Under the pieces are notes generated by a model, which worked only from the letters and a program-made list of their open reading frames with translations, did no database searches and was not told the DNA's origin. DNA of 64,000 bases from Candidatus Gorgyraea atricola (GTDB lineage Bacteria > Omnitrophota > Gorgyraeia > Gorgyraeales > Gorgyraeaceae), in NCBI GenBank assembly GCA_030765235.1, contig JAVCCW010000029.1, forward strand, positions 76,939 to 140,938, read 5' to 3'. Position 1 is the first letter of the stretch. Each line of letters begins with the position of its first letter. A program made the position numbers and the translations under genes. Below are positions 5,054-58,998 of the stretch, in pieces.

Positions 5054-6610
5054 GTGAATAAGCGTCCGCTTGCTGTAATTGCGATTTTCTTTGCATTAGG
5101 TATTGTCATTGCTAAGTTTTTGCCTGATTCTGTTCTATTTCCGCATGTATTCGTAGTTAGTTTAATCTTCATTTTATCGTCTTTACTTCTCACTCTACGT
5201 AGGCCAGGTTTAAACCTGGCCTACGGTGTAGATGGGGCGAGAAGAAAAGCCTCAAATATCCTTTTACTTTTATCAATAGCTTCATTCGCGATGCTTCTGT
5301 ATATCAATTCAAATATCTTTCCGAATAATCACATCAGCAATTTCTTAGGAGAGGAAAAACTCAAAACAGAGATAGTCGGCACTATCAAAAGCCCTGCATT
5401 GACGCGGAAGCCGTATTATGGGAAAATTAACTCGACGTATATATTCGACTTAGAAGCCATGCTGGTGAACGGTGAACGGTTTACGGTTAACGGATTAAGT
5501 CAGATAAGGATACAGACGGAAAAAGACTATCAATATGGCGATAGATTGCTTGTTAGAGGGACGATAAAAAGACCGTTCAATAGTGTCATTGCGAGCGAAG
5601 CGAAGCAATCTCAAGAAAAAGAGATTGCTTCGGCTGCTTCGCCCCGTTCCAAATCAGAGATTTGGAACGGGGCTTCGCAGCCTCGCAATGACAAGAGGAG
5701 TTTTGATTACCGAGGATTTCTCGAACGACAAAACATCTTTGCCCTTATAAACACAAGAGAGAATAATATTACTGTCCTATCTCACGATTACAAATCAAAT
5801 CCTATCCTGAGATATGCGTATTTACTCCGCGACAAACTGAAAAATCAAATCATTGATAAGATGCCTTTGGATAGCGGCGCTTTTTTAAGGGCGATTCTTC
5901 TGGGAGATCGCTCAGAATTGCCAAAACATGTTCGGGATTCATTTAAAAACTCAGGTACTATACATGTCCTGGCAATAAGCGGTCTGCATATTGGGATTAT
6001 TGCGCTTATGATCCTTTATCTTTTTAGGCTCTTGAGGGTCAGGAGGGAATTTTCTTACGGATTAACAATAATATTTTTGATATTTTTTGCGCTTCTTACG
6101 CTTTCAAGGCCATCAGTAGTAAGGGCAGTGGTTATGGCATCTATATTTCTTATAGGTATGCTTTTGGGGAAAAAGGTGGATGTGTATAATTCTTTGGGCG
6201 CAGCAGCGCTTTTTATATTGGTCAGGAATCCTAAGGATATTTCCAATATCGGGTTCCAGCTTTCTTTTGCGGCCGTTCTTTCTATATTGTTCTTTACGCC
6301 CAAATTCATGAGGCTTGTGAAGGAGGGGACGAATTTCTATATAAAGAGATTCTTGTATACACCTCTGGCAGTCTCAATATCAGCGTGGGCTGCAACAGCT
6401 CCTTTAATATGGTATTACTTCAAGATCACGACACCCATTGCCATTATCGCTAATCTCTTTATAATACCTGGCCTTTTTGCATTATTGATAGGCGGTCTGA
6501 GTTTTCTATTGCTGGGCTGGGTACCATTTATAGGAGATCTTCTGGCAGGCCTTAATGATTTTCTGTGTCAGGTGATCTTTTTTCTCACAACCTTCTTTGC
6601 ATCCTTTTAA
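5054..6610 (+). CDS. comEC: DNA internalization competence protein ComEC/Rec2 (core channel domain only, no C-terminal metallo-beta-lactamase domain). Contains two in-frame repeat-element insertions.
   Basis: HVLAISGLHIGIIALMILY and a multi-TM ComEC core. It follows comEA. The 26-bp palindrome at 5199..5224 and the 108-bp hairpin element at 5585..5692 are both read through in frame. Confidence 0.8.
   Translation: MNKRPLAVIAIFFALGIVIAKFLPDSVLFPHVFVVSLIFILSSLLLTLRRPGLNLAYGVDGARRKASNILLLLSIASFAMLLYINSNIFPNNHISNFLGEEKLKTEIVGTIKSPALTRKPYYGKINSTYIFDLEAMLVNGERFTVNGLSQIRIQTEKDYQYGDRLLVRGTIKRPFNSVIASEAKQSQEKEIASAASPRSKSEIWNGASQPRNDKRSFDYRGFLERQNIFALINTRENNITVLSHDYKSNPILRYAYLLRDKLKNQIIDKMPLDSGAFLRAILLGDRSELPKHVRDSFKNSGTIHVLAISGLHIGIIALMILYLFRLLRVRREFSYGLTIIFLIFFALLTLSRPSVVRAVVMASIFLIGMLLGKKVDVYNSLGAAALFILVRNPKDISNIGFQLSFAAVLSILFFTPKFMRLVKEGTNFYIKRFLYTPLAVSISAWAATAPLIWYYFKITTPIAIIANLFIIPGLFALLIGGLSFLLLGWVPFIGDLLAGLNDFLCQVIFFLTTFFASF
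5199..5224. repeat. 26-bp palindromic repeat GTAGGCCAGGTTTAAACCTGGCCTAC, copy 1 (in-frame inside comEC)
   Basis: Perfect palindrome containing GTTTAAAC. Seven copies in the window. Confidence 0.9.
5585..5692. repeat. 108-bp MITE-like double-hairpin element with GTCATTGCGAGCGAAGC terminal inverted repeats, inserted in-frame (36 codons) in comEC
   Basis: Termini GTCATTGCGAGCGAAGC...GCTTCGCAGCCTCGCAATGAC. Internal hairpins GAGATTGCTTCG and CCCCGTTCCAAATC/GATTTGGAACGGGG. Confidence 0.7.
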
Positions 6611-8179: not shown

Positions 8180-9139
8180 ATGCCCACCAAAATATTCCCC
8201 GCGTATCTTTTTCTTGGCGAAGAGGGTTTTTTAAAGCAAGAGGCGATCGAGAAACTGAAGTCGACTCTTTTGGATAAAAACACCCAGGATCTTAACTACA
8301 ATACATTTTACGCTAAGGACAAGAATTTTAACGTCAGTCAGATGCTTGACGATCTTGATACCATGCCGTTTTTATCAAAGAGGAGGCTGGTGATATTAAA
8401 GGAGGCTGATTCTGTAACCGTATCCGCAAAGACATCGATCCTTTCTTATCTGGAGAGTCCGAGGGAAAGCTCTGTTTTTGTTATTGAAAGCGATCTGCCT
8501 GCAATAAAGGGTGATTTTCTTTTAAAGGCCTCAAAGGCCGCGCACCTGATCTATCACAGGAAGCTGACAGACTCTAGCATCAATACATGGCTTGTTAAAA
8601 GAGCAGGCCTTGCCGGCAAAAAGATCTCCACAGAGGCCATTGACGCAATAAAAGAAAACCTGCCGAATGATCTCAGGGTGATCTCTTCCAATATGGATAA
8701 CATAATCCTCTATGTTGGCAAGAGGCCATTGATAAAAAAGCAGGATATTGAGAATATTGTAGGAGTGAGCCCTTCGCATACTGCCTTTGATCTTATAGAT
8801 GCTATAGGAGAGAAGGATGCTAAAAGAGCGCTGCGTATATTTTCTACTCTTAAGAGAGACAAGAAAAGGGAAACAGAGCTTTTAGGGCTTTTGGCATGGA
8901 ATGCGAGGATGCTTTTAAGGATAAAGGAGCTTTTCAGGATCAAGAATAATATGGAGATGCGTCAGGATCTTGACCTGAGCCCAAGGGTATTTGAGAGGAT
9001 CCTGCGTCACGCGTCTATGCTGAAGAAAAAAGAGATCCTCGCGCTGCTGGACGAGATACTCCGCTCAGACCTTGCTATAAAAACAGGCACTTCTCCTGGC
9101 GCTGTGATAGAGAGATTAATCGTAAGGATGTGTATCTAA
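8180..9139 (+). CDS. holA: DNA polymerase III delta subunit
   Basis: N-terminal ...PAYLFLGEEGFLKQEAIEKLK... is a typical HolA start. About 320 aa. Synteny with lptE. Confidence 0.75.
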   Translation: MPTKIFPAYLFLGEEGFLKQEAIEKLKSTLLDKNTQDLNYNTFYAKDKNFNVSQMLDDLDTMPFLSKRRLVILKEADSVTVSAKTSILSYLESPRESSVFVIESDLPAIKGDFLLKASKAAHLIYHRKLTDSSINTWLVKRAGLAGKKISTEAIDAIKENLPNDLRVISSNMDNIILYVGKRPLIKKQDIENIVGVSPSHTAFDLIDAIGEKDAKRALRIFSTLKRDKKRETELLGLLAWNARMLLRIKELFRIKNNMEMRQDLDLSPRVFERILRHASMLKKKEILALLDEILRSDLAIKTGTSPGAVIERLIVRMCI

Positions 9140-9209
9140 CTTTACTTGGCAAGGCTGGACCTCGGCTTTTTTTAAAAAAAGCCGAGGTCCAGCCTTGCCA
9201 AGTAAAGTT
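9139..9209. terminator. Long perfect hairpin (29-bp stem, A/T-tract loop) between convergent holA and rpsT. Bidirectional intrinsic terminator and member of a repeat family.
   Basis: AACTTTACTTGGCAAGGCTGGACCTCGGC-TTTTTTTTAAAAAAA-GCCGAGGTCCAGCCTTGCCAAGTAAAGTT. Confidence 0.75.
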
Positions 9210-9471
9210 AAGCGGTTTTTAGCTTTTTTGAGAGACGGGCAATTTTGCGCGAGGCAGTGTTCTTGTGGATAATGCCTTTTGAACTTGCCCTGTCGAGCGT
9301 TGAGATGAGGACATTGAGCTGTTTCTTTGCCTCATCCAGTTTTTTTGCAGACACAAGATCTATAAATTTCTTTGTCTCAGTCTTTAAAAGAGACTTTATA
9401 GACAGATTCCGCGCGGTCCTTCTTTTGGTTACCTTGATACTCTTGTAAGCAGCATGTAGTATTGGCATCAT
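9208..9471 (-). CDS. rpsT: 30S ribosomal protein S20
   Basis: An 87-aa basic protein reading MPILHAAYKSIKVTKRRTARNLSIKS... matches the S20 family. Convergent with holA and shares the bidirectional hairpin terminator. Confidence 0.85.
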   Translation of the reverse strand: MMPILHAAYKSIKVTKRRTARNLSIKSLLKTETKKFIDLVSAKKLDEAKKQLNVLISTLDRASSKGIIHKNTASRKIARLSKKLKTA

Positions 9472-9514: not shown

Positions 9515-11038
9515 ATGTCAACGAAAAAGCATATACTTAAATCAGCCGGGATCATAGGGTTTGCTACTGTGGTGAGCCGCGTGCTGGGGTTTGCGCGCGA
9601 TATCTTGATCGCGCGATTCTTTGGCACCGGTAAATTTGCTCAAGCCTTTGTGGTGGCATTCCGCATACCAAATATGCTGAGGGATCTCATAGGCGAGGGA
9701 GCGACTAACGCGGCTGTAGTTCCGGTCTTGAGTGAGTATTCTGAGACAAAAAAGAAAGAGGAATTCTGGCATCTGGCCAATGTATTGCTGAACGTGGTCT
9801 TGATCGTGCTGACAGGTGTGACTTTGGCAGGTATTGTCTTTGCGCCAGTGATCGTGCGTCTTATAGCGCCTGGTTTTATAAGCGATCCTGAGAAGTTAAG
9901 GCTTACAGTGTATCTGACGCGTTTCATGTTTCCCTATGTATTACTCGTGGGACTCCTGGCTTACGGTATGGGCATACTTAATTCCTTGAAGCATTTCTCA
10001 GCGCCAGCGTTTGCGCCGGCGATATTGAACCTGACGATAATAATATGTGTGCTCGTGAGACAGGGAAGTGTTTCAGCGCTTGCAACAGGTGTTTTAATAG
10101 GCGGTGTTGTGCAGATGGCTGTGCAGATACCTGTTTTATTTGCCAAAGGATTCCGTTTTAATTTTAGGAGCGGCTTTCATCACCAGGCTGTAAGAAAGAT
10201 AGGCGCGCTTCTGGCTCCCAGGATACTCGGCTCGTGTGTATATCAGATAAATATTTTTGTCAATACAATGCTCGCGTCACTTTCGTCTATAGTAGGGCAG
10301 GGAGGCGTGGCAGCGCTTTATTATGCGAACAGGATCTTTCAGTTTCCGCTCGCAATATTTGGGATAGCTATTGCGCAGGCAGCATTGCCTACCATGTCCA
10401 GGGAGGCGCTTGAGCAGGGTCTTGAAAAGCTTAAAGATACACTTTCCTTTTCGCTCAGGGCAGTGAATTTTATAATGCTGCCTGCCTCTTTTGGCCTGAT
10501 AGTGCTTGCCAGGCCCATAACCAGTGTATTGTTTCAAAGAGGCATGTTTGGACAATATTCAACATCCATAACTGCGGGCGCGCTCGCGTTTTATTCAATA
10601 GGACTTTTTAGTTACGCGGGGATCAAGATACTGGTGTCGTGTTTTTATTCGCTGAAGGATACATTTACGCCTGTAAAGATCGCGAGTGTATCTTTGGTGT
10701 TAAATGTCGTGCTGGGAGTAATGCTTATGTTTTTTTTAAAGATAAGCGGCCTTGCGCTCGCCACTGCTATATCGGGGATATTTAATTTCTTCCTGCTGTT
10801 TTTTGCCTTAAGAAAAAAGATCGGCGCGTTTGATGATTCGAAGATAGTGACTTCATTTCTGAAGATGTTTGCATCGAGCGCAGTGATGGCAGGGTTGATA
10901 TATTTTAGCGCGTTCCGGATGGGGCTGAATCTTTTTATTGTCATATTAATAGGTATAGTGAGTTATATGTTAGCCGCGTTTGTATTTCGCGTGAAAGAGA
11001 CAAGGGAGTTTTTGAAATGGGCCTTAAGGAGAAATTAA
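9515..11038 (+). CDS. murJ: Lipid II flippase MurJ
   Basis: 507 aa, about 14 TM segments. N-terminal GFARDILIARFFGTGKFAQAFVVAFRIPNMLRDLIGEGA is diagnostic of MurJ/MviN. Confidence 0.85.
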   Translation: MSTKKHILKSAGIIGFATVVSRVLGFARDILIARFFGTGKFAQAFVVAFRIPNMLRDLIGEGATNAAVVPVLSEYSETKKKEEFWHLANVLLNVVLIVLTGVTLAGIVFAPVIVRLIAPGFISDPEKLRLTVYLTRFMFPYVLLVGLLAYGMGILNSLKHFSAPAFAPAILNLTIIICVLVRQGSVSALATGVLIGGVVQMAVQIPVLFAKGFRFNFRSGFHHQAVRKIGALLAPRILGSCVYQINIFVNTMLASLSSIVGQGGVAALYYANRIFQFPLAIFGIAIAQAALPTMSREALEQGLEKLKDTLSFSLRAVNFIMLPASFGLIVLARPITSVLFQRGMFGQYSTSITAGALAFYSIGLFSYAGIKILVSCFYSLKDTFTPVKIASVSLVLNVVLGVMLMFFLKISGLALATAISGIFNFFLLFFALRKKIGAFDDSKIVTSFLKMFASSAVMAGLIYFSAFRMGLNLFIVILIGIVSYMLAAFVFRVKETREFLKWALRRN

Positions 11039-12261
11039 AAAAGATACCGCGCTCGCCTGGTATTTACATGATGAAGGATGCCGGGGGTGAGGTGCTCTAT
11101 ATAGGTAAGGCAAAGGATCTTTCGAAAAGGGTCGCAAGTTATTTTCAGAAGAATCGGCCTGTGACTGCGAGGCGGATGCATTTATTGGAACGCGTGAAGG
11201 ACCTGGATTATATAACTACGACTTCTGAAGAAGAGGCGCTTATCTATGAGTCGAATCTCATAAAGGAGAAAAAGCCGAAGTATAATGTGGACCTCAAGGA
11301 CGACAAGAGTTTTCCTTTTTTGAAATTGACATCGGGTGAGCGGTTTCCGCGACTTGTTATTACGCGGAAAAAGAGTGACGATGGCTCGAGATATTTTGGG
11401 CCGTACACGCGCGTGAAGCTTTTGCGCAAGGCGATTGCGGTAATGAAGGCCATCTTCCCTCTACGCACGTGCAAGAAGATGCCGGATCACGTGTGCCTGT
11501 CATATCATATTGGCCAGTGCGCAGGACCGTGCGTTAAAAAAGTCAGCGAAAAGGAGTATGGCGAGATCGTGAGGCAGCTTGTATTGTTTCTAGAAGGAAA
11601 AAAGGCGACACTTTTAAGAGAATTGGAGCAAAGAATGGGGGACGCAGCAAAGAATGAGAGATTCGAGGATGCGTGCATGATCCGCGACAGGATCGCAGCG
11701 CTTTCAGAGGTGCCTGGAAAAAAGTTCAGGGAATATAGCGGGTATGGCGATGTCGCGGTAAAGCTAAAAAGGCTTTTGCGGCTGCCGAGACTGCCTTTAA
11801 AGGTCGAGGCGTTTGACGTGTCAAATATATCAGGCCAGGAGGCCACAGGGTCGATGGTATATTTCAAGAATGGCAAGCCTGATAAATCAAATTACAGGAA
11901 ATTCAAGATAAAAAGCGTAAAGGACATAGACGACTATGCAATGATCCAGGAAATCGTGAGACGCAGGTACAAGCGGCTCAAGGAGGAAGACAAGGAGTTT
12001 CCCGATCTTATCATAATAGACGGGGGCAAGGGTCATTTACAGGCGGCATACAGGGAGCTCATGAAGCTGAATCTCAGGTATGTACCTATAATATCCATTG
12101 CAAAGAAACAGGAAAAGATATACACGCTTGGCGCTAAAAGCCCGTTGGATGTGAACAGGGACTCGCAGATCGTGCACTTTATCCAGCAGATCCGTGACGA
12201 AGCCCACCGCTTCGCGCTCAAGTATCACCACAAGCTGCGGGATAGGAAAGCAAGCCTCTAA
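11017..12261 (+). CDS. uvrC: UvrC-like excinuclease (short form, 414 aa). Has GIY-YIG, UVR and a RDEAHRFA-containing segment but lacks the C-terminal (HhH)2 domain.
   Basis: GIYMMKDAGGEVLYIGKAKDLSKRVASYF (GIY-YIG). UVR-like segment LRELEQRMGDAAKNERFEDACMIRDRIAAL. IRDEAHRFALKYHH near the C-terminus. The first 22 nt overlap the end of murJ. Confidence 0.65.
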   Translation: MGLKEKLKKIPRSPGIYMMKDAGGEVLYIGKAKDLSKRVASYFQKNRPVTARRMHLLERVKDLDYITTTSEEEALIYESNLIKEKKPKYNVDLKDDKSFPFLKLTSGERFPRLVITRKKSDDGSRYFGPYTRVKLLRKAIAVMKAIFPLRTCKKMPDHVCLSYHIGQCAGPCVKKVSEKEYGEIVRQLVLFLEGKKATLLRELEQRMGDAAKNERFEDACMIRDRIAALSEVPGKKFREYSGYGDVAVKLKRLLRLPRLPLKVEAFDVSNISGQEATGSMVYFKNGKPDKSNYRKFKIKSVKDIDDYAMIQEIVRRRYKRLKEEDKEFPDLIIIDGGKGHLQAAYRELMKLNLRYVPIISIAKKQEKIYTLGAKSPLDVNRDSQIVHFIQQIRDEAHRFALKYHHKLRDRKASL

Positions 12262-23918: not shown

Positions 23919-24431
23919 ATGTTATGTGATACATGCAAAAAGTCTCAGGCAACAGTGCATTTGACAGAGATCATAGACGATCAGATGACAGAGCTTCATC
24001 TGTGCGAGGAATGCGCGCAGAAAAAAGGCGCGCAGATGGAGAGTCACTTTGGCCTGGCAGATCTTTTAGCCGGCCTTGCAGACTTAGGTAGCGGCCAGTT
24101 TACCAAGGCAAAGAGTGAGACGCAGGTCAAGTGCCCGCGATGCGGCCTTACCTATGAGGATTTTAAAAAAGTAGGAAGATTAGGCTGCGGTGAATGTTAT
24201 TCCGCGTTCAAAGAGGCGCTTATGCCTCTTCTAAAAAGGATACACGGCTCTACGCAGCATTATGGCAAGTCTCCGAAAAAGATGACAAAGACAACAAAGT
24301 CAGTAAAGAGCAAAAATGAATTACAGGAACTAAAAGATAAGCTGCAAAAGGCAATACAGGTGGAGGAGTTTGAGGAAGCAGTTAAGGTGCGAGATAAAAT
24401 CCGTGATATAGAGAAACGCAGGAAGAAATGA
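23919..24431 (+). CDS. mcsA: Protein-arginine kinase activator McsA (zinc-finger plus UVR-domain protein)
   Basis: Two CxxC pairs at the N-terminus (CDTCKK...CEECAQ, CPRCG...CGECY). C-terminal UVR motif (EEFEEAVKVRDKI). Immediately upstream of mcsB-clpC. Confidence 0.75.
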   Translation: MLCDTCKKSQATVHLTEIIDDQMTELHLCEECAQKKGAQMESHFGLADLLAGLADLGSGQFTKAKSETQVKCPRCGLTYEDFKKVGRLGCGECYSAFKEALMPLLKRIHGSTQHYGKSPKKMTKTTKSVKSKNELQELKDKLQKAIQVEEFEEAVKVRDKIRDIEKRRKK

Positions 24432-24536
24432 CCAATGCCCAATTACCAATGACCAATAAATTCCCAATTACCCAATTTCCAATTGGTCATTGGACATTGG
24501 TCATTTATTGGTAATTGGGAATTGGTAATTGGAAAT
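24431..24536. repeat. About 106-bp imperfect palindrome built from CCAAT/ATTGG units (centre CCAATTGG), between mcsA and mcsB
   Basis: ACCAATGCCCAATTACCAATGACCAATAAATTCCCAATTACCCAATTTCCAATTGG... mirrored. Confidence 0.8.
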
Positions 24537-24554
24537 TTTAAGGGGGTTTTACAC

Positions 24555-32458: not shown

Positions 32459-33127
32459 ATGAATGTCGCAGCCATAGTTCCCGCCGCAGGTAAAGGTAGG
32501 CGCATAAAATCAAAGATAGCCAAGCCACATATAAAGCTTTGCGGCAAACCAATACTTGCGCATACGCTAGTCAGGCTTTCAAAGAATAAACACATAAAAG
32601 AGATCATTGTCAGCGTCGATAAAAAACATATAGCAAGGGTCAAGAGATTCAAGATCAAGAATGTAAAGGTAGTAGCTGGAGGAAGGGAAAGAAAGCACTC
32701 CGTGCTTAATGCATTGAAAAAGGTGTCTAGCAACATAGATTATGTATTGATCCACGATGGCGTGAGACCCTTTCTTACTGATAAATTAATAAACGCCTCT
32801 TTAAAGGCAGCTCGCTCTTTTGGCGCAAGTGTTGTCGCGGTACCTGTAAAACCTACCTTGAAATGCGCTGGGAGGAGAGGCTGTGTAGCATACACGCCTG
32901 ATAGGACAAAGTTTTGGGAGGCGCAGACACCTCAGGTATTCAAAAGAGATTTAATAGAGAAGGCATACAGGGCCATTGGCAAGAAAAACATAACAGATGA
33001 TTCCATGCTGGTCGAGCTCCTGGGCATAAAACCAAAACTAGTCATGGGCTCGTACAGAAATATAAAGATCACGACAGAAGAAGATTTGAAACTGGCAAAG
33101 ATGTTGTGTAGTTTACCTCCTCTGTAG
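32459..33127 (+). CDS. ispD: 2-C-methyl-D-erythritol 4-phosphate cytidylyltransferase
   Basis: MNVAAIVPAAGKGRR is a typical IspD start. The stop codon TAG lies inside the 26-bp palindrome at 33124..33149. Confidence 0.85.
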   Translation: MNVAAIVPAAGKGRRIKSKIAKPHIKLCGKPILAHTLVRLSKNKHIKEIIVSVDKKHIARVKRFKIKNVKVVAGGRERKHSVLNALKKVSSNIDYVLIHDGVRPFLTDKLINASLKAARSFGASVVAVPVKPTLKCAGRRGCVAYTPDRTKFWEAQTPQVFKRDLIEKAYRAIGKKNITDDSMLVELLGIKPKLVMGSYRNIKITTEEDLKLAKMLCSLPPL

Positions 33128-33157
33128 GCCAGGTTTAAACCTGGCCTACAGAGGAGG
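33116..33157. repeat. 26-bp palindromic repeat, copy 5, with an extended 42-bp palindrome CCTCCTCTG...CAGAGGAGG. Carries the ispD stop codon and the ispF RBS.
   Basis: Core at 33124..33149. The arms extend the palindrome to 42 bp. Confidence 0.9.
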
Positions 33158-33649: not shown

Positions 33650-35011
33650 ATGAAGATATATAATACGCTTAAGAGAAAAAAGGAAAGTTTCGAGCCCAAG
33701 AGAAAAATCGGTATGTACGTATGCGGCCCAACGGTTTACGACGCGCCTCATATCGGTCACGCGAGAAGCGCTTATGCATTTGATGTGATACGCCGGTATT
33801 TTGAATATAAAAAACACAAGGTTACTTTTGTAAGAAATGTCACTGATGTCGACGATAAGATAATCAATAAAGCGAGAGATGAATTTAAGAAAGAGGATTT
33901 AAATAGCGCGGTAAAAAAGGTCTCAGATAAATACCTCAAGGTCTATCATAAATACATGGATGATCTGGGTATCAAGCGGCCTGATAAAGAGCCAAAGGCC
34001 ACAGAGTATATAGGTAAGATGAAGGATTTTATCGCTATATTGATAAAAAAAGGCGTAGCTTATGAATCAGATGGCGATGTGTATTTTAATATTAAAAAGG
34101 CAAAGAAATATGGCAAATTGTCAAATCAGAGCATTGAGAACCTGGAGGTTGGGGCGCGAGTTTCTCCAAAAGAACACAAAAAGGACCCACTTGATTTTGC
34201 TCTTTGGAAAAAGGCCAAGGATGGTGAGCCTTATTGGGAGAGTCCATGGGGAAAAGGCAGACCTGGCTGGCATATAGAATGCTCGGTGATGAGCTCGGAT
34301 ATTTTAGGAGACGAGTTTGACATACACGGCGGAGGCATAGATCTTATCTTTCCGCACCACGAGAACGAGATTGCGCAATCAGAGGGCGCAGGAAAAAAAT
34401 TCGCGCGTTTTTGGATACACAACGGACTTTTGACTATCAATAAAGAAAAGATGGCCAAGTCCCTGGGAAATTTTATTACAATAGAAGAGATCCTGAGTAA
34501 ATATTCAGCAGACGTACTTAAGATATTATTCTTACAGACGCATTATTCTCATCCAGTGGATTTTTCCTGGGAGAGGATGGAAGAGGCGAAGAGGGCGATG
34601 GAGAGGTTCAGTATCGTGTTGGGCAGCTCCGATAGCAACAAGCGACAAGCAACAAGGGACAAGGGGGTTGAAGAATTTCGCAAGAGGTTTGAGGAGGCTA
34701 TGGATGATGATTTTAATACTCCAAGTGCACTTGCGGCGCTGTTCGATTTAGTTACGTATGTTAATAAATTAGGGACAAGGGACAAGGGACAAGGGACAAG
34801 GGAGTTGTTGGATTTGGGTAGGGTGTTCGGGTTGTTTGAGAAAAGAAAAGTCCAGAAACTTAAGGTAGAGGTAAAAAAACTCATAGAGGAAAGAAATAAA
34901 GCCAGGAAGGAAAAGGATTTCAAGGCAGCGGATAAAATAAGAGAAAAATTAGATAAAATGGGCATTATACTCGAGGATCAAAAAGACGGCACCACCTGGC
35001 GAACGACCTAA
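33650..35011 (+). CDS. cysS: Cysteinyl-tRNA synthetase. An in-frame (GGGACAAG)x4 array lies in the linker region.
   Basis: HIGH (PHIGHARS) and KMSKS (KMAKSLGN) motifs. Zinc-binding Cys residues. Array at 34772..34803, with a degenerate copy at 34624..34656. Confidence 0.9.
   Translation: MKIYNTLKRKKESFEPKRKIGMYVCGPTVYDAPHIGHARSAYAFDVIRRYFEYKKHKVTFVRNVTDVDDKIINKARDEFKKEDLNSAVKKVSDKYLKVYHKYMDDLGIKRPDKEPKATEYIGKMKDFIAILIKKGVAYESDGDVYFNIKKAKKYGKLSNQSIENLEVGARVSPKEHKKDPLDFALWKKAKDGEPYWESPWGKGRPGWHIECSVMSSDILGDEFDIHGGGIDLIFPHHENEIAQSEGAGKKFARFWIHNGLLTINKEKMAKSLGNFITIEEILSKYSADVLKILFLQTHYSHPVDFSWERMEEAKRAMERFSIVLGSSDSNKRQATRDKGVEEFRKRFEEAMDDDFNTPSALAALFDLVTYVNKLGTRDKGQGTRELLDLGRVFGLFEKRKVQKLKVEVKKLIEERNKARKEKDFKAADKIREKLDKMGIILEDQKDGTTWRTT
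34772..34803. repeat. Tandem 8-mer array (GGGACAAG)x4 in-frame in cysS. A degenerate array lies upstream at 34624..34656.
   Basis: GGGACAAGGGACAAGGGACAAGGGACAAGGGA. Confidence 0.85.
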
Positions 35012-35077
35012 CTTTACTTGGCAAGGCTGGACCTCGGCTTTTTTAAAAAAGCCGAGGTCCAGCCTTGCCAAGTAAAG
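35009..35077. terminator. Second copy of the identical 29-bp-stem hairpin, between cysS and tmk (same strand)
   Basis: Same stem sequence as 9139..9209. The loop is TTTTTTAAAAAA. Confidence 0.7.
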
Positions 35078-35093
35078 TTAGGTTAAGGGGATC

Positions 35094-37580: not shown

Positions 37581-37702
37581 AATCCCAAATCCAAATACTA
37601 CCAAATCCCAAATAAATCCCAATTTCAAAATCCCAAAATTGGGATTTGGGATTTTGGATTTATTTGGTAGTATTGGTATTATTGGTAGTATTGGGATTTA
37701 TT
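37581..37702. repeat. About 120-bp imperfect palindrome of CCCAAAT/ATTTGGG units (centre CCCAAAATTGGG) between ricT and metG. Shares an identical 29-mer with the greA-upstream element.
   Basis: GATTTATTTGGTAGTATTGGTATTATTGG occurs at 37657..37685 and again at 47326..47354. Confidence 0.8.
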
Positions 37703-41121: not shown

Positions 41122-42173
41122 AGTTCATCAGGCGTGAAAAGATATATTTCCTAATACTCTTTTTTATATTAGCTGTAAATTTGATGCAGGTAAAGACCGT
41201 AAAAAAAGAGACGCCTAGTGAAAAGTCTTTGTCTTCGATGAACTTTGAGGAACTGGGTGTTACAGAAGAAAAGGTTAAGGACTTTTTCGAGTCTGATAAG
41301 TTCAGCGCAAAATTCTTTAAGTATCTTGTATACTTTGGATTTTTTATATTTGCCCTGTCTTTGGTGCTGAATCTTGTTTTTATTTTTAGGGGAAAGCCCC
41401 GTCTCTGTAGGCCGGGTTTAAACCCGGCCTACAGAGACGGGGTGGAGATAGGGAGAAAGGGTGCGGGAGCACCATGGGAGATACTGGACATATTCAGGGC
41501 AGTCCTTATTATAATATTTGCAGGTTATGTGCTGGCGATCATCGAGGCGTATGTCGTGAAGTCCTTTCATCTTGAATTGACTATGAATCTACGCATGATA
41601 ATCAATACCTTTTTTATAGATATTGTTGCAGCGATGGTGATCTTGTATTTTGTCATGGTCAAATACAAAAAGAACATACAGGAGTTGGGACTAAAGACCT
41701 CTTCTTTTTTAAGAAATATTTTATCTGGCATAACTGCCTATATTTTTATGTTGCCGGTTTTGCTGGTAATATTGATCTTCTCTATATGGATCTTGAATGC
41801 GTTGGGATATACGCCGCCGCCTCAGCCTGTATTTGAGGTGTTCATGGAAGAGAAGAAGAGCCTGGTGCTTTTATTTCTGACAGTCTTTGTATCAGTGCTT
41901 GGGCCTATAGTAGAAGAGGTCTTTTTTAGAGGGTTTATGTACAGTGCTGTAAGAAAGCATACAGGTGTATTGGCCGCGGCATTTTTAAGTGGCGCTATTT
42001 TTAGTATGCTGCATACAAACATCGTTGGATTTTTACCCATAATGGCGCTGGGCGTGCTTTTGGCATATCTCTACGAGACTACAGGTTCGCTTGTGGCGTC
42101 GATAAGTGTTCATATATTGCATAATTCCATTATCGTGGCTTTTGTATTTTTTCTAAAAGAATTAATAGGTTAG
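41115..42173 (+). CDS. CPBP-family intramembrane metalloprotease (Abi/CAAX protease). Carries an in-frame 26-bp palindrome insertion.
   Basis: Conserved EE(V)xFRG (GPIVEEVFFRGFMY) and HxxxN/H motifs in TM helices. The palindrome at 41407..41432 encodes CRPGLNPAYRDG. Confidence 0.6.
   Translation: MLEFIRREKIYFLILFFILAVNLMQVKTVKKETPSEKSLSSMNFEELGVTEEKVKDFFESDKFSAKFFKYLVYFGFFIFALSLVLNLVFIFRGKPRLCRPGLNPAYRDGVEIGRKGAGAPWEILDIFRAVLIIIFAGYVLAIIEAYVVKSFHLELTMNLRMIINTFFIDIVAAMVILYFVMVKYKKNIQELGLKTSSFLRNILSGITAYIFMLPVLLVILIFSIWILNALGYTPPPQPVFEVFMEEKKSLVLLFLTVFVSVLGPIVEEVFFRGFMYSAVRKHTGVLAAAFLSGAIFSMLHTNIVGFLPIMALGVLLAYLYETTGSLVASISVHILHNSIIVAFVFFLKELIG
41397..41442. repeat. 26-bp palindromic repeat, variant copy 6 (GCCGGGTTTAAACCCGGC core), with extended CCCCGTCTCTG arms. 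In-frame inside the CPBP protease.
   Basis: Core at 41407..41432. The variant keeps the palindrome through a compensatory change. Confidence 0.85.
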
Positions 42174-46168: not shown

Positions 46169-47283
46169 AATTTTACAGGCCGACATATGCAGAGATAGAT
46201 CTGGGCGCGATGCGCCATAATCTGCGTGCGATAAAGAAGATCGTGGGTAAGGACATGGAGATACTTGGCATTGTAAAGGCAGATGCATATGGCCATGGCA
46301 TGCTCGAGGTCTCAAGGACGCTCATTAAGCAAGGAGTGAAATACTTAGGTGTTGCCTCTCTGGATGAAGCTGCGTTGCTGCGCGCAGCAGGCATAAAGGC
46401 AAAGATCATCGTGCTCGGTTCAATCTTGCCACAAGAGGCTGAAGGTGTATTGAAATTTAATGTAATACAGACGGTTTCAGATCTAGATATTGCAAAGACG
46501 CTCTCAAGACTTGCCCAGAGAAGAAAGAAAAAGATAAGGATCCACATAAAGATTGACACAGGCATGGGTAGGCTTGGTTTTTGGCATGAAGAGGCAATAG
46601 GTTTTGTTAAAAAGATAGCATTACTAAAAAACATTATTATAGACGGTATCTTTACGCATTTTCCCAGCGCGGAGAGTGACGCGCCTTTTACACAGAAACA
46701 GATAAAGGATTTTAATTTTCTTATGCGGTCTCTTTGGCGATGCGGTATTGAAATACCTATAAAGCATACCTCGAACAGCATGGCGCTTGTAGATTTTAAA
46801 GAGTCTCGCATGAATATGGTGAGGCCTGGTCTTATTATGTATGGCCTGCATCCTAGAGCCGATTTATTTAAGAGACTGGGCCTGAAGCCGGTCTTAAAGT
46901 TCAAGACAAAGATCGTGCATCTTAAATCAGTAGCGCGAGGAAGAAGTGTAAGTTATGGAAGGGCGTATATTGCAGGCGAAGACACAAAGATCGCTACGAT
47001 CCCAGTGGGATACGGAGATGGTTATTCGCGACATTTATCAAACAGGGCAGATGTTTTAATAAAAGGTAAACGCGCGCCAGTAGTGGGCAGGGTTTGCATG
47101 GATATGACCATGGTCTATGTAGGGCACATAAGAGGTGCGAAGGTCGGAGACGAGGTGGTGTTGATCGGTGCTCAGGGTAAAGATATTATAAGGGCTGAGG
47201 AACTCGCGAATCTCATATATACTATTCCGTACGAAATTGTGTGCAACATTGGCCGCCGAGTGCCAAGGGTATATAAAACATGA
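46165..47283 (+). CDS. alr: Alanine racemase
   Basis: PLP lysine motif GIVKADAYGHG. Conserved C-terminal beta domain. 372 aa. Confidence 0.9.
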   Translation: MKFYRPTYAEIDLGAMRHNLRAIKKIVGKDMEILGIVKADAYGHGMLEVSRTLIKQGVKYLGVASLDEAALLRAAGIKAKIIVLGSILPQEAEGVLKFNVIQTVSDLDIAKTLSRLAQRRKKKIRIHIKIDTGMGRLGFWHEEAIGFVKKIALLKNIIIDGIFTHFPSAESDAPFTQKQIKDFNFLMRSLWRCGIEIPIKHTSNSMALVDFKESRMNMVRPGLIMYGLHPRADLFKRLGLKPVLKFKTKIVHLKSVARGRSVSYGRAYIAGEDTKIATIPVGYGDGYSRHLSNRADVLIKGKRAPVVGRVCMDMTMVYVGHIRGAKVGDEVVLIGAQGKDIIRAEELANLIYTIPYEIVCNIGRRVPRVYKT

Positions 47284-47372
47284 AAAATCCCAAATCCCAA
47301 AACATGTTTGGGATTTTGAAATTGGGATTTATTTGGTAGTATTGGTATTATTGGAATTTGGGATTTATCGCG
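47284..47372. repeat. CCCAAAT/ATTTGGG hairpin element between alr and greA (same family as the metG-upstream element)
   Basis: AAATCCCAAATCCCAAAACATGTTTGGGATTTTGAAATTGGGATTT plus the shared 29-mer. Confidence 0.8.
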
Positions 47373-49119: not shown

Positions 49120-49256
49120 TGTTTGGGAGCGTCCGCCGCGTCCGAAGGTAGCCTTTTATGGGATAAGTGGGGCGTGGGGTGTTCTGTGAGTGGGAGGATC
49201 CACGCCGGGCGGAGGGGCCCACGAACAGAATACCCCGCGCCCCACAATATGCGATA
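49120..49256. ncRNA. GC-rich, highly structured non-coding segment (candidate small RNA or structured repeat) upstream of the PPIase gene
   Basis: 14-bp stem GTGGGGCGTGGGGT (49167..49180) pairs with ACCCCGCGCCCCAC (49232..49245). Nested TTCTGT/ACAGAA and GTGGG/CCCAC pairings. No long ORF. Abuts the MITE-like fragment. Confidence 0.25.
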
Positions 49257-49258
49257 AA

Positions 49259-49319
49259 GAGATTGCTTCGCTTCGCCCCGCCCTTTCTTCAGAAAGGGCG
49301 GGGCTTCGCTCGCAATGAC
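49259..49319. repeat. Partial or derivative copy of the GTCATTGCGAGCGAAGC-terminus element (intergenic)
   Basis: GAGATTGCTTCGCTTCGCCCCGCCCTTTCTTCAGAAAGGGCGGGGCTTCGCTCGCAATGAC. Its right end is a perfect reverse complement of the left terminus of the comEC copy. Confidence 0.6.
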
Positions 49320-49419: not shown

Positions 49420-50382
49420 ATGCGTATGCGTAAGATTGGTATCTTCGTATCTCTGGTTTTAGTGTTGGCACTTGGTTTTGCTATATCTAGTAGTGCTGCT
49501 TCGAAATATGCAGCAAAGGTAAATGGCGTAAAGGTCAAGTCTATGACGCTTGAGGCCGCGGTCGATAATTTTATTGCAAATCAAAAGATGATGGGCATGC
49601 AGACCAATGAAGGGGATAGGGATAAGCTGCGCGCACAGATACTAGAGGAATTGATCTCTGCGGAGCTCTTGTATCAGGAGAGCAAAAAGGCTGGCCTGGA
49701 TAATTTAAATGATAAGGTAAAGGAACAGTTTGAAAATATTAAAAAGGGATTTGCCTCAAAGGATGAATTTAAGAAGGTTTTAAAAGAAAGAGGCGTGAGC
49801 GAAAAAGAGCTTAAGAACGACATAAAAAAGGGTCTTTACATAAAGGCATTTCTGGATAGGGACATCTATGCTGGTGTTACTGTAAGTGAGCAGGAGAAAC
49901 AAGCAGAGTATGAGAAAAATAAAGATAAGCTTAGCGTCCCTGAGCAGGTAAAGGCAAGCCACATATTGATTATGGCTAAGCCGGATGCAAGTGATGAGGA
50001 TAAAAATGCGGCAAAGGCAAAGATAGAGGATCTAAGAAGAAAGGCTTTATCAGGCGAGGATTTTGCAGAACTGGCAAAGGCGAATTCGCAGGATGGATCA
50101 GCTTCGAATGGTGGAGACCTGGGTTATTTTGGAAGAGGCGCAATGGTAAAACCGTTTGAGGATGCCGCGTTTAGTCTGGAAGCAGGACAGATAAGCCAGA
50201 TAGTTGAGACACAGTTTGGCTATCACATTCTAAAGGTTACGGACAAGCAGGAGCCCAGGACCTTGAGATATGAAGAGGTCGCGCCTGATATCGAGAGATT
50301 TTTATTAAATCAGCGCAGAGGAGAAGTACTGCAAAAATTTGTCACTGGATTAAGGAGTAAGGCGAAGATAGAGGTTTATTAG
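49420..50382 (+). CDS. Parvulin-type peptidyl-prolyl cis-trans isomerase (SurA/PrsA-like, secreted)
   Basis: Signal peptide plus a PpiC domain (SHILI...GGDLGYFGRGAMVKPFEDAAF...GYHILKV). Confidence 0.75.
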   Translation: MRMRKIGIFVSLVLVLALGFAISSSAASKYAAKVNGVKVKSMTLEAAVDNFIANQKMMGMQTNEGDRDKLRAQILEELISAELLYQESKKAGLDNLNDKVKEQFENIKKGFASKDEFKKVLKERGVSEKELKNDIKKGLYIKAFLDRDIYAGVTVSEQEKQAEYEKNKDKLSVPEQVKASHILIMAKPDASDEDKNAAKAKIEDLRRKALSGEDFAELAKANSQDGSASNGGDLGYFGRGAMVKPFEDAAFSLEAGQISQIVETQFGYHILKVTDKQEPRTLRYEEVAPDIERFLLNQRRGEVLQKFVTGLRSKAKIEVY

Positions 50383-56839: not shown

Positions 56840-56889
56840 AATCGCGGAACCTACGCAGAAGCTCAACTTTACACTTGAGCAAGGCTAAA

Positions 56890-56921
56890 GAAGTAGCCCA
56901 GGTTTAAACCTGGGCTACTTC
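56890..56921. repeat. 26-bp palindromic repeat, variant copy 7 (GTAGCCCAGGTTTAAACCTGGGCTAC) with GAAG/CTTC arm extension. leuA-aroE spacer.
   Basis: Core at 56893..56918. Compensatory G/C swap on both arms. Confidence 0.85.
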
Positions 56922-56930
56922 TTATACGAG

Positions 56931-57833: not shown

Positions 57834-57838
57834 GCTTT

Positions 57839-58016
57839 GCACTCCCCAGACCAGTAGGGCGAGAGGCATCGTTGGGCCGAGCGGGCACGGTGCCTAACCT
57901 GACACTTTAAGTATGACTTAAAGTGTCAGGTTAGGCGAGCGAGGAACAACAATGAGAAAAAATTTCCTCGCTGGGGAAATTTTTGCGCCCTCTCGACCTA
58001 CTGGTCTGGGGAGTGC
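57839..58016. repeat. Composite nested inverted-repeat element between aroE and pilD. 28-bp terminal inverted repeats (1 mismatch) enclose an inner 20-bp-stem hairpin.
   Basis: Terminal repeat GCACTCCCCAGACCAGTAGGGCGAGAGG at 57839..57866 pairs with CCCTCTCGACCTACTGGTCTGGGGAGTGC at 57988..58016. Inner hairpin CCTAACCTGACACTTTAAGT...ACTTAAAGTGTCAGGTTAGG at 57893..57935. Confidence 0.8.
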
Positions 58017-58027
58017 AGACATTTGAT

Positions 58028-58798
58028 ATGATACATTTAGTCGTTTTTATCTTTGGTTCAATGATCGGGAGTTTTTTGAATGTGTGCATATACAGGATAC
58101 CTAGGGAGGAGTCTATTGTTTCTCCTGGTTCAAGGTGTACCTCCTGCGAAAAGCCAATACTGTGGTATGATAATATCCCTTTATTAAGCTATGTTATTTT
58201 AATTGGCAAGTGCAGGCATTGCAAAAAAAGAATATCCTTTCGCTATTTCGCAGTTGAACTCATAAGCGCACTCGCGTTCTTAACACTGTTTTATTATTTT
58301 GGATTAACCGCGAAGTTCTGGATCTATAGCCTGGTGACATTCGCTCTTATCGTAACGACATTTGTCGACCTGGAATTCCAGATCATACCTGACAGGATCA
58401 GTCTTGGCGGCCTGGTCTTAGGAATCATTTTAAGTATCTTAATACCGCAGCTTCATAATAGTCTTACATGGGAAACAGGATTTATGAAATCTCTATTGGG
58501 TATGTTTGCGGGCGGCGGACTCATATATCTTACAGGTTATGTCGGCCAGATCATATTCAAGAAAGAGAGCATGGGCGGAGGAGATGTAAAACTTATGGCT
58601 ATGCTGGGCGCTTTTCTGGGTTGGAAAATGGCAATACTCATATTTTTTCTCGCGCCATTTTTCGGCACACCCGCGGGCCTGTATTTGAAATTTAAGAAAA
58701 AACAGGATATAATTCCCTATGGGCCCTATATAGCGTTGGCCAGCTTTGTCGCAATGATCTGGGGCCGCAAAATATTGAATATGTTATTTTTTTATTAA
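58028..58798 (+). CDS. pilD: Type IV prepilin leader peptidase (A24 family). No N-terminal zinc-finger or methyltransferase extension.
   Basis: MIHLVVFIFGSMIGSFLNVCIYRIP, tetracysteine CTSCEK...CRHCKK, a catalytic Asp-containing segment. The track start at 57983 lies inside an inverted repeat, so ATG at 58028 is preferred. Confidence 0.75.
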   Translation: MIHLVVFIFGSMIGSFLNVCIYRIPREESIVSPGSRCTSCEKPILWYDNIPLLSYVILIGKCRHCKKRISFRYFAVELISALAFLTLFYYFGLTAKFWIYSLVTFALIVTTFVDLEFQIIPDRISLGGLVLGIILSILIPQLHNSLTWETGFMKSLLGMFAGGGLIYLTGYVGQIIFKKESMGGGDVKLMAMLGAFLGWKMAILIFFLAPFFGTPAGLYLKFKKKQDIIPYGPYIALASFVAMIWGRKILNMLFFY

Positions 58799-58805
58799 AT
58801 GAGGA

Positions 58806-58976
58806 CATGACTTACGAAAATCAAAGATTTTCGTAAGTCATGTGTCCGAATTTAACCCCACACCCAGTTACTTCGAAGTGTTGCTTTGGTGTATCTGGGT
58901 GTGGGGTCCAATTCGTACAATCAAAGTAGTTGTTCAAGGGAGATTGGTTTACGAAAATCAGAGATTTTCGTAAACC
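58806..58976. repeat. Composite element between pilD and aroC. Two related hairpins flank a GC-rich hairpin.
   Basis: Hairpin 1: (TGACTTACGAAAATCAAAGATTTTCGTAAGTCA). Hairpin 2: (GGTTTACGAAAATCAGAGATTTTCGTAAACC). Central GC-rich hairpin: CCCCACACCCAG...CTGGGTGTGGGG at 58856..58906. Confidence 0.8.
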
Positions 58977-58998
58977 AAGTACTCATTGGAGGTGCAAG

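Follow-up and report, generated by a model that had tools for sequence, protein, structure and literature searches.

Among the described systems closest to the element reported here are the Rickettsia palindromic elements (RPE), reportedly described by Ogata et al. They lie in frame within Rickettsia protein-coding genes (reference [13] of PMC3733652), and two of them, RPE-4 and RPE-6, are members of the CGTC-type REPs (PMC3733652). The CGTC REPs carry a CGTC or TGTC tag, an 8-9 bp stem that begins with an A-T and then a T-A pair, a 4-5 nt loop and a tail of three nucleotides, CCA; head-to-head dimers predominate and intragenic in-frame copies occur (Di Nocera, De Gregorio, Rocco 2013, PMC3733652). 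Four families have been published, and no dedicated transposase is known for them (PMC3733652). Another related system is built around Ssn (Chenal et al., Nat Commun 2025, PMC11893778), a small nuclease of the GIY-YIG type that acts on single-stranded DNA. Ssn binds hairpins as single-stranded DNA only and cuts a few nt to the 5' side of the tag, and the cytosine right after the palindrome is the base most important for binding; the binding and cutting results stem from the Neisseria and Wolbachia pairs only (PMC11893778). In Neisseria the architecture is NTS-ssnA-NTS, the NTS being CGTCATTCCCGCGMAVGCGGGAATCYRG, and the SRM are found with the degenerate search sequence HGTCWYN(0-2)YYVSBRHN(0-5)WNVSBRGN(0-2)RNCYNB (PMC11893778). 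Mobilisation of the repeats by Ssn has been raised as a hypothesis only (PMC11893778).

We describe here a 108-bp segment within comEC of a member of the Omnitrophota, which is probably a non-autonomous head-to-head dimer of hairpin units, belonging to the CGTC-tagged REP / SRM superfamily, that landed in the ComEC linker. The repeat structure, the insertion, its recurrence at the same site, the spread of the unit across phyla and the flanking of GIY-YIG genes by such units are direct observations.

A hairpin dimer in frame within comEC

The window, that is the whole 64-kb stretch of DNA that was analysed, contains the following features.

5054..6610, plus strand: comEC, 518 aa, with DUF4131 and Competence domains (Pfam; orthologue alignment)
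5585..5692, no strand assigned: head-to-head dimer of two hairpin units, 108 nt (sequence, folds, in-frame position in ORF 5054-6610)
5585..5612, plus strand: unit A, the minimal 28-nt unit (sequence; exact 28-mer matches in genome contigs)
5613..5620, no strand assigned: 8-nt spacer AAGAAAAA that separates the inverted units A and B (sequence)
5621..5692, minus strand: unit B, 72 nt, inverted, with tag, stem and tail as in unit A (sequence, fold)
49259..49319, minus strand: unit C, a complete singleton unit of 61 nt, intergenic (sequence, 17-mer match, fold)

The element at 5585-5692 is 108 nt long and has the sequence GTCATTGCGAGCGAAGCGAAGCAATCTCAAGAAAAAGAGATTGCTTCGGCTGCTTCGCCCCGTTCCAAATCAGAGATTTGGAACGGGGCTTCGCAGCCTCGCAATGAC. 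Its termini form an 11-bp inverted repeat (GTCATTGCGAG / CTCGCAATGAC). Position 5585 lies on a codon boundary, 531 nt (177 codons) past the comEC start, and the element occupies codons 178-213 exactly, translated as VIASEAKQSQEKEIASAASPRSKSEIWNGASQPRND. An earlier note on this DNA had described an in-frame palindromic element of exactly 36 codons, and both the sequence with its reading frame and the folds agree with this description. As RNA the element folds at -71.3 kcal/mol, compared with -30.1 +/- 3.4 for shuffles (z = -12.1; 0/200 shuffles at least as stable), and as DNA at -45.8 kcal/mol (z = -12.2). The two perfect internal hairpins that the note had seen are present, one of 12 bp and one of 15 bp resting on a 5-bp base; the segment is nevertheless better described as two inverted copies of a unit of about 28 nt, the second of which is expanded.

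Unit A is laid out as a GTC tag, an ATTGC arm, GAG, a GC-GAA-GC mini-hairpin, CGAA, a GCAAT arm, C and a TC tail. On its own it forms the ATTGC/GCAAT stem, yet its stability is that of shuffles (-2.7 kcal/mol, z = +0.37). Unit B has its inner hairpin expanded to 49 nt (5633-5681), in which a GAA/GAA internal loop separates a GCTGC/GCAGC stem from a perfect stem of 15 bp; its minus strand folds as a single unit (DNA -28.6 kcal/mol, z = -7.1). The tags read AGTC in unit A and TGTC in units B and C and are unpaired in the folds, and a cytosine directly 3' of the stem (GCAAT-C) is found in all three units of the window.

Two other structures were considered and rejected. The CTTCG direct repeats around the second hairpin could suggest a nested insertion with a 5-bp duplication; the arrangement of ga, stem, loop, stem and ga is family-wide and represents a symmetric GAA/GAA internal loop. 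A hammerhead or other three-way-junction ribozyme was discarded as well, since the conserved core is absent from the junction strands and Rfam gives no match.

Copies, variation and spread of the unit

The 17-mer GTCATTGCGAGCGAAGC is found twice in the window, at 5585-5601 (+) and 49303-49319 (-), with 0.15 occurrences expected, and GAGATTGCTTCG of the comEC element is found again at 49259. The earlier note had reported this return of the terminus as a reverse complement and the recurrence of sub-motifs beside it, in both cases correctly. Its view of 49259-49319 as a fragmentary copy has to be given up: unit C is a complete monomer on the minus strand that folds independently (DNA -21 kcal/mol, z = -5.1). 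The inner 13-bp hairpin of unit C has a sequence unlike that of the unit B inner hairpin, and the unit lies about 100 nt upstream of an ORF starting at 49420. The 64-kb window has only three units. The note was also right that ComEC carries two foreign elements; the second is an unrelated palindrome at 5198-5225, in the first loop of ComEC, and copies that match it are present at other places in the window.

Further copies, for which the note had suggested a search of the genome with the termini, are abundant. The exact 28-mer has at least 120 matches in genome contigs from many phyla, three cultured isolates among them, and the 17-mer has at least 120 in viral contigs. Counts of dimers and singlets, of variants and of flanks refer to units in fetched loci, i.e. 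among the matches listed. The inner hairpin is free in sequence and keeps its hairpin form: 99 distinct variants were seen, 5 to about 70 nt long, and GNA triloops flanked by GA are frequent among them. Sibling families keep GTCAT...ATC, and their stem letters covary (TTGC/GCAA, TTCT/AGAA, TTCCC/GGGAA, TGGCC/GGCCA). The 3' tail is CTC in the window units and CCAG in many copies elsewhere.

These data bear on the idea that the segment acts mainly as an RNA element, a stable hairpin of the comEC mRNA that governs translation, processing or decay. Such a role would be compatible with a mobile origin, and the RNA fold is indeed very stable, but we regard it as unlikely. The freedom of the inner hairpin sequence speaks against it, as do the GNA triloops with GA flanks, a combination typical of stable DNA hairpins such as d(GCGAAGC). 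Across the whole window, Rfam yields nothing at gathering scores, and permissive E-values return only generic hairpins (miRNA precursors etc.) far below threshold. Many REPs have been argued to be transcribed (Di Nocera et al., PMC3733652); however, RNA is not bound by Ssn (PMC11893778).

The earlier note had called the element MITE-like. In the strict sense this would mean an internally deleted IS that relies on a DDE transposase acting in trans and leaves target-site duplications, and although terminal inverted repeats of 11-17 bp, small size and several copies are in line with such an origin, it is quite improbable here. No target-site duplication, for which the note had asked to check, is present at the window copies or, in viral contigs, at 51 complete dimers; the flanking bases are mostly Y...R, a simple extension of the palindrome. 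Single units are common: among the matches listed in viral contigs, a partner terminus lies within 170 nt in 51 of 155 occurrences, and 104 of 155 are single units. Moreover, neither a recurring transposase nor a parental IS of the DDE type accompanies the units at the 120 genome loci listed, where the recurring neighbour families look generic (ABC ATPase, response regulators) and small GIY-YIG genes occur at three loci. Among about 330 fetched loci no filled/empty polymorphism was seen as split HSPs or long alignment gaps. Literature searches by sequence strings returned primers and unrelated matches only, and those for Omnitrophota together with palindromes, or GIY-YIG together with MITE or REPIN, returned nothing.

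The GIY-YIG partner gene

At one locus (L127) a unit, a GIY-YIG gene and an inverted unit follow each other, and another Omnitrophota MAG (L130) has a GIY-YIG gene with a sibling motif at its flanks. Among metagenomic GIY-YIG loci with enough flank, a sense unit head is present upstream in 50 of 66, an inverted head downstream in 57 of 66 and both in 44 of 66, the background density of unit heads being 1.14 per kb; the 80 GIY-YIG loci that were collected are those most closely related to a query that itself had this unit at its flanks, so that the 67% (44/66) is valid for that subfamily only. The flanked proteins have about 96 aa and a single domain, with Pfam PF01541 as the only match. Compared with NTS-flanked GIY-YIG proteins, the L127 protein is 42-47% identical, with HMM E-values of 1e-31 to 1e-35. 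Judged by this similarity, the unit-flanked protein is a member of the same family as Ssn. The unit-ssn-unit module measures about 0.43 kb, and the right unit often contains the stop codon. The 64-kb window itself contains no ssn gene; its sole GIY-YIG signal, at ~11044-11295, is weak and is probably UvrC.

The units share with SRM and NTS a hairpin given its orientation by an unpaired (H)GTC tag, a stem whose first letters are AT and a C directly after the stem, as well as the inverted orientation around a single-domain GIY-YIG gene of about 96 aa. Common to the TTGC unit and the NTS is GTCATT...AATC. In contrast to the NTS, the Omnitrophota unit has TTGC/GCAA as stem letters, and its stem, broken by a GA-rich loop, bears an inner hairpin. 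The comEC element lies within a gene and is translated; of the NTS copies in N. meningitidis only 2% are intragenic. The host of the comEC element, an Omnitrophota member, differs from those of the SRM/NTS described. The SRM search sequence matches the NTS but neither the three window units nor the units flanking the L127, L130 and L243 genes, and a match within 300 nt of the gene is found at one of the 80 GIY-YIG loci. The published SRM pattern misses, in other words, a very abundant cross-phylum TTGCGAG subfamily that flanks a GIY-YIG gene in two thirds of the loci examined.

With the CGTC REPs the comEC units have in common the GTC tag, the A-T/T-A first stem pairs, a short 3' tail and in-frame intragenic copies; the element is likewise a head-to-head dimer and has no tie to tyrosine transposases. 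It departs from them in its outer stem, which has 5 bp rather than 8-9 bp and leads into an internal loop and then an inner hairpin, and in its tail, CTC instead of CCA. The REPIN/RAYT system (Bertels and Rainey 2011) resembles it in that two inverted hairpin units are combined with a spacer, singlets arise by decay, units lie on both sides of a single partner gene and the substrate is single-stranded DNA. A REPIN proper, two inverted REPs for whose movement a RAYT (HUH tyrosine transposase, IS200/IS605 type) is responsible, would account for this architecture, for the common singlets and for a likely single-stranded DNA form. We nevertheless hold this to be very unlikely, because REPINs combine a GTAG tag with an HUH Y1 transposase, whereas the tag here is (H)GTC and the gene flanked by units encodes a GIY-YIG nuclease; nor did Di Nocera et al. 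find any RAYT flanked by CGTC-type units (PMC3733652).

The ComEC linker and the proposed origin of the insert

The insert is located in the ComEC linker, between the DUF4131 and Competence domains. Orthologues from Omnitrophota have 467-550 aa, and several of them contain in-frame copies. The linker of L327 is an empty site, while other orthologues hold other versions, and this comparison bears out the foreign insertion that the earlier note had proposed. In L001 a 72-nt dimer shares the right-hand junction of the 108-nt element and reads AAAAGAAA at the spacer position. The linker of L002 contains a related dimer of 83 nt that is translated in a different frame, L325 and L326 retain only the remnant CCTCGCAATGAC (RPRND), and L003 and L004 have an unrelated palindrome. 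Among 78 full-length ComEC homologues, PRND-type peptides (P/A/S-RND) occur in 15/78, LAMT in 3/78 and EIAS-type peptides in 14/78. The ComEC linker is a hot spot for insertions. In different Omnitrophota lineages this one linker has taken up palindromes belonging to five or more families, partial remnants included. The AlphaFold model of ComEC is of moderate quality, with a mean pLDDT of 65.7 and values of 35-47 in the insert region, which hints that the insert may be a loose loop.

In this respect the element behaves like an RPE. The repeat is palindromic and about 100 bp long, lies in frame, adds a translated loop to a conserved protein and is missing from an orthologue (L327); the likeness is one of behaviour and not of sequence membership, and host phylum, sequence family and host gene (comEC) are different.

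Variable linker length in all orthologues and the low AlphaFold confidence might be taken to indicate native coding sequence, a fast-evolving linker that became palindromic by chance, but this is hardly credible given the z of -12 against shuffles, the same 28-mer in intergenic DNA of unrelated phyla, the 17-mer in viral contigs and the L327 orthologue without any insert. Palindromic repeats are able to mis-join contigs, yet a repeat-induced chimeric join in the MAG is just as implausible, as the flanks are colinear with ComEC orthologues, the frame is kept and a related dimer occupies this site in L001, which was assembled independently.

For the insertion of a non-autonomous hairpin-unit dimer, we propose the following course of events. 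A unit consists of the unpaired 5' (H)GTC tag, the ATTGC...GCAAT stem, the GA-rich internal loop, an inner hairpin free in sequence and length and the C after the stem. The source genome would carry a cognate ssn gene, and we infer that Ssn mobilises the units: they would be copied by Ssn itself, or by host repair of nicks that Ssn would make beyond each of the two ends, one per strand. The comEC dimer would be an ORF-less derivative of a unit-ssn-unit module. A copy landed in a permissive ComEC linker between DUF4131 and Competence and is now translated as a 36-residue loop. It probably persisted in comEC because its 36-codon length and its phase avoid the TGA of one CAATGAC frame.

A more general scheme, in which the unit-ssn-unit module is self-mobilising with the GIY-YIG nuclease as its only protein, ORF-less dimers are its miniature derivatives and ComEC linkers are preferred landing sites, is offered here tentatively and is rather doubtful. 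If true, it would provide a mobilising enzyme for the orphan CGTC REPs and the Rickettsia-type palindromes, and one from a class not known to move bacterial repeats. ComEC is the channel that imports single-stranded DNA in transformation, a process modulated by Ssn in Neisseria; this may be coincidence. The element is of a known kind and a new example of it, an in-frame palindrome of the Omnitrophota tied to an enzyme identified only in 2025, and it joins three literatures, those on Rickettsia-type in-frame palindromes, on CGTC-tagged REPs 'without a transposase' and on Ssn/SRM.

A palindrome read through in comEC

A 108-nt palindrome with the ends GTCATTGCGAG and CTCGCAATGAC lies at 5585-5692 and is more stable than its shuffles both as RNA (-71.3 kcal/mol vs -30.1 +/- 3.4; z = -12.1) and as DNA (-45.8 kcal/mol; z = -12.2). 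The host reading frame (5054-6610, 518 aa) carries DUF4131 and Competence domains and is ComEC; the element starts exactly at codon 178 and is translated into 36 residues, VIASEAKQSQEKEIASAASPRSKSEIWNGASQPRND. Its 17-mer terminus occurs once more in the window, reverse-complemented at 49303-49319, where 0.15 copies are expected by chance. We show here that the element is foreign, repeated and structured DNA that is read through in comEC. The mobile-type insertion kept in frame and the recurring terminus, both described in the earlier note, are confirmed. The AlphaFold model of ComEC is mediocre (mean pLDDT 65.7), and values of 35-47 in the insert region are weakly consistent with a loose loop. 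The earlier note saw termini enclosing two internal hairpins and a fragmentary second copy; the best reading of the element is a pair of inverted copies of a single unit, and the copy at 49259-49319 is a complete monomer.

Hairpin units in the window
5585-5612, + strand: unit A, 28 nt, GTC-ATTGC-GAG-CGAAG-CGAA-GCAAT-C-TC
5613-5620: spacer AAGAAAAA, 8 nt
5621-5692, - strand: unit B, 72 nt; tag, stem and tail as in unit A, inner hairpin enlarged to 49 nt
49259-49319, - strand: unit C, 61 nt; complete, inner hairpin differs again

A loose scan of the window finds these three units only. Folded alone, units B and C are alike, with an unpaired tag, an ATTGC/GCAAT outer stem, an internal loop and an inner hairpin (z = -7.1 and -5.1); unit A also forms the outer stem, but its shuffles fold at least as stably. 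A long imperfect hairpin (49167-49245, GTGGGGCGTGGGGTGTTCTGT...ACAGAATACCCCGCGCCCCAC; DNA fold z = -6.1) directly adjoins unit C, so that two palindromes of different type lie side by side between these genes.

Linker states among ComEC orthologues

The best protein matches of the window ComEC are ComEC proteins of Candidatus Omnitrophota (467-550 aa, at most 75% identity by BLASTP). Two hypervariable loops stand out in an alignment of 36 ComEC matches; the second, which separates the DUF4131 and Competence domains, holds the element. Linker states were read from the DNA of seven orthologues, including one that lacks the insert.

Linker states in orthologous comEC loci
L327: site empty; 57 nt between anchors vs 168 nt in the window
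L001: 72-nt dimer; right-hand junction and reading frame as in the window
L002: 83-nt relative in another reading frame (LLAMT)
L325 and L326 (proteins P0012 and P0017): exactly CCTCGCAATGAC alone, equal to the unit's right terminus, read as RPRND
L003 and L004: unrelated palindrome; L004 is the closest relative found

Because these states differ (empty, dimer, remnant, other palindromes), the ComEC linker is an insertion hot spot that has been repeatedly colonised, remodelled and partly cleaned out. The short linkers of L325 and L326 suggest an older insertion that was partly deleted, rather than a site that was never occupied. As the sequence itself shows, CAATGAC is read into TGA in one frame, and therefore only length or phase variants avoiding this stop can survive in comEC. 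Among 78 full-length ComEC homologues, PRND-type peptides (P/A/S-RND) occur in 15, EIAS-type in 14 and LAMT in three, and the same loops also hold other repeat-derived peptide families. Loop 1 of the L003 protein contains a half-unit. The palindrome shared by L004 (10500-10620) and the L003 linker, TTCTCGACTTCGCTCGAAGAA...GTTCGAGCGAAGTCGAGAAC, is translated SRLRS...VRAKSRT and has the GCGAAG core without the GTCA tag.

That ComEC carries two foreign palindromes, as the earlier note had it, holds as well: the second is a GTAG-tagged, REP-like palindrome in loop 1 (5198-5225, CGTAGGCCAGGTTTAAACCTGGCCTACG, translated RRPGLNLAY). Its core is repeated in three intergenic palindromes (33116-33157, 41397-41442 and 56888-56923), and loops of other orthologues hold the similar peptides RRPGLNLAYG and GGFQTRPY. 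Two perfect palindromes (9137-9210, 74 nt; 35006-35083, 78 nt) form one family, TAACTTTACTTGGCAAGGCTGGACCTCGGCTTTTTTAAAAA..., unrelated to the comEC element. Inverted repeats rich in CCAAT/CCCAA lie at 24423-24538, 37588-37680 and 47282-47369, and sequence of this type is translated (NPKSQ, IPNKSQ) in the linkers of other Omnitrophota ComEC proteins (P0045, P0046, P0075). Two pairs of 29-39-nt inverted repeats (57838-58017 and 58798-58987), with arms 112-122 nt apart and further hairpins inside, may be other small palindromic elements.

Spread of the unit and its GIY-YIG partner

The exact 28-mer of unit A has at least 120 matches in genome contigs and the 17-mer at least 120 in viral contigs. 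Among the genome matches listed, record titles name Alpha- and Gammaproteobacteria, Planctomycetota, Omnitrophota, Chloroflexota, Bacteroidota, Nitrospirae, Fibrobacter, Treponema, Curtissbacteria and one Thermoplasmata MAG; three are cultured isolates. Of the 155 viral occurrences listed, 51 are dimers, mostly of 76-87 nt, and 104 have no partner terminus within 170 nt. Four viral contigs (L015, L024, L093, L114) carry the 28-nt unit in tandem arrays with a period of 37-45 nt, in many viral contigs single units immediately precede a ribosome-binding site with its ATG, and the same phage gene families are common to about 28 viral loci. The inner part is free in sequence (99 distinct variants of at least 14 nt) but keeps a hairpin, frequently one that has a GNA triloop flanked by GA; sibling families hold GTCAT...ATC constant while the stem letters co-vary. 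Since GNA triloops closed by C-G are classic extra-stable DNA mini-hairpins, they point to a single-stranded DNA form of the unit.

The earlier label of a MITE is not borne out, as the 120 genome loci listed show no recurring transposase and the units are of the SRM (Ssn-related motif) or CGTC-tagged REP kind. Small GIY-YIG genes lie near units in three of these loci. In L127 a unit precedes ATG...GIY-YIG...TGA by 11 nt and an inverted unit follows it after 4 nt; L130, from an Omnitrophota MAG, and L243 are arranged alike but with sibling units. The flanked proteins have about 96 aa and PF01541 as sole Pfam domain. A metagenome scan with their alignment gave 580 relatives, of which the best 80 were kept; 66 of these loci extend 150 nt or more beyond the gene in either direction. 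There, a sense-oriented unit head stands upstream in 50/66, an inverted head downstream in 57/66 and both in 44/66, against a background of 1.14 heads per kb outside the flanks; the sample is biased to L127 relatives and the fractions are valid for that subfamily only. The TGA of tGAGATTGC frequently serves as the GIY-YIG stop codon. The 64-kb window has no ssn gene; a weak GIY-YIG similarity at about 11044-11295 (tblastn E ~0.002), inside a long reading frame starting near 10909, probably reflects the UvrC N-terminal domain.

Relation to Ssn and CGTC-tagged repeats

CGTC-tagged REPs have a CGTC or TGTC tag, a stem starting A-T, T-A and a short tail, are mostly head-to-head dimers with some intragenic copies, and include Neisseria dRS3 and Rickettsia RPE-4 and RPE-6; the authors concluded that a dedicated transposase is absent (Di Nocera et al. 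2013, PMC3733652). SsnA, a 94-aa GIY-YIG protein, requires single-stranded DNA to bind the NTS hairpin CGTCATTCCCGCGMAVGCGGGAATCYRG, cleaves a few nucleotides upstream of it and reduces transformation by NTS-bearing DNA; its homologues are widespread and bordered by SRMs, and the NTS-ssnA-NTS arrangement was likened to an IS, with mobility not demonstrated there (Chenal et al. 2025, PMC11893778). Scanning viral contigs for NTS, we found five NTS - GIY-YIG - NTS loci. By sequence comparison the TTGCGAG-type unit appears to belong to the Ssn/SRM system as a variant of different specificity, because the NTS-flanked proteins match the L127 protein (42-47% identity) and nearly the full length of an HMM of the 80 metagenomic proteins (E = 1e-31 to 1e-35). 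The published degenerate SRM search sequence matches none of the units found here and occurs within 300 nt of the GIY-YIG gene at one of the best 80 of 580 loci.

According to the literature, Ssn recognises an oriented hairpin in single-stranded DNA and nicks 5' of it. In a head-to-head dimer we infer that the top strand has the cleavable orientation at the left end and the bottom strand has it at the right end, so that Ssn nicks would fall immediately beyond either end, one on each strand. The dimer may derive from a unit-ssn-unit module that lost its ORF.

The comEC element belongs to the SRM / CGTC REP kind, with units like those that flank Ssn-family genes, and is inserted in frame as Rickettsia palindromic elements (RPEs) are. 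Of moderate interest are the insertion hot spot in ComEC, the composite unit with its free inner hairpin and the failure of the published search sequence to capture this type of unit.
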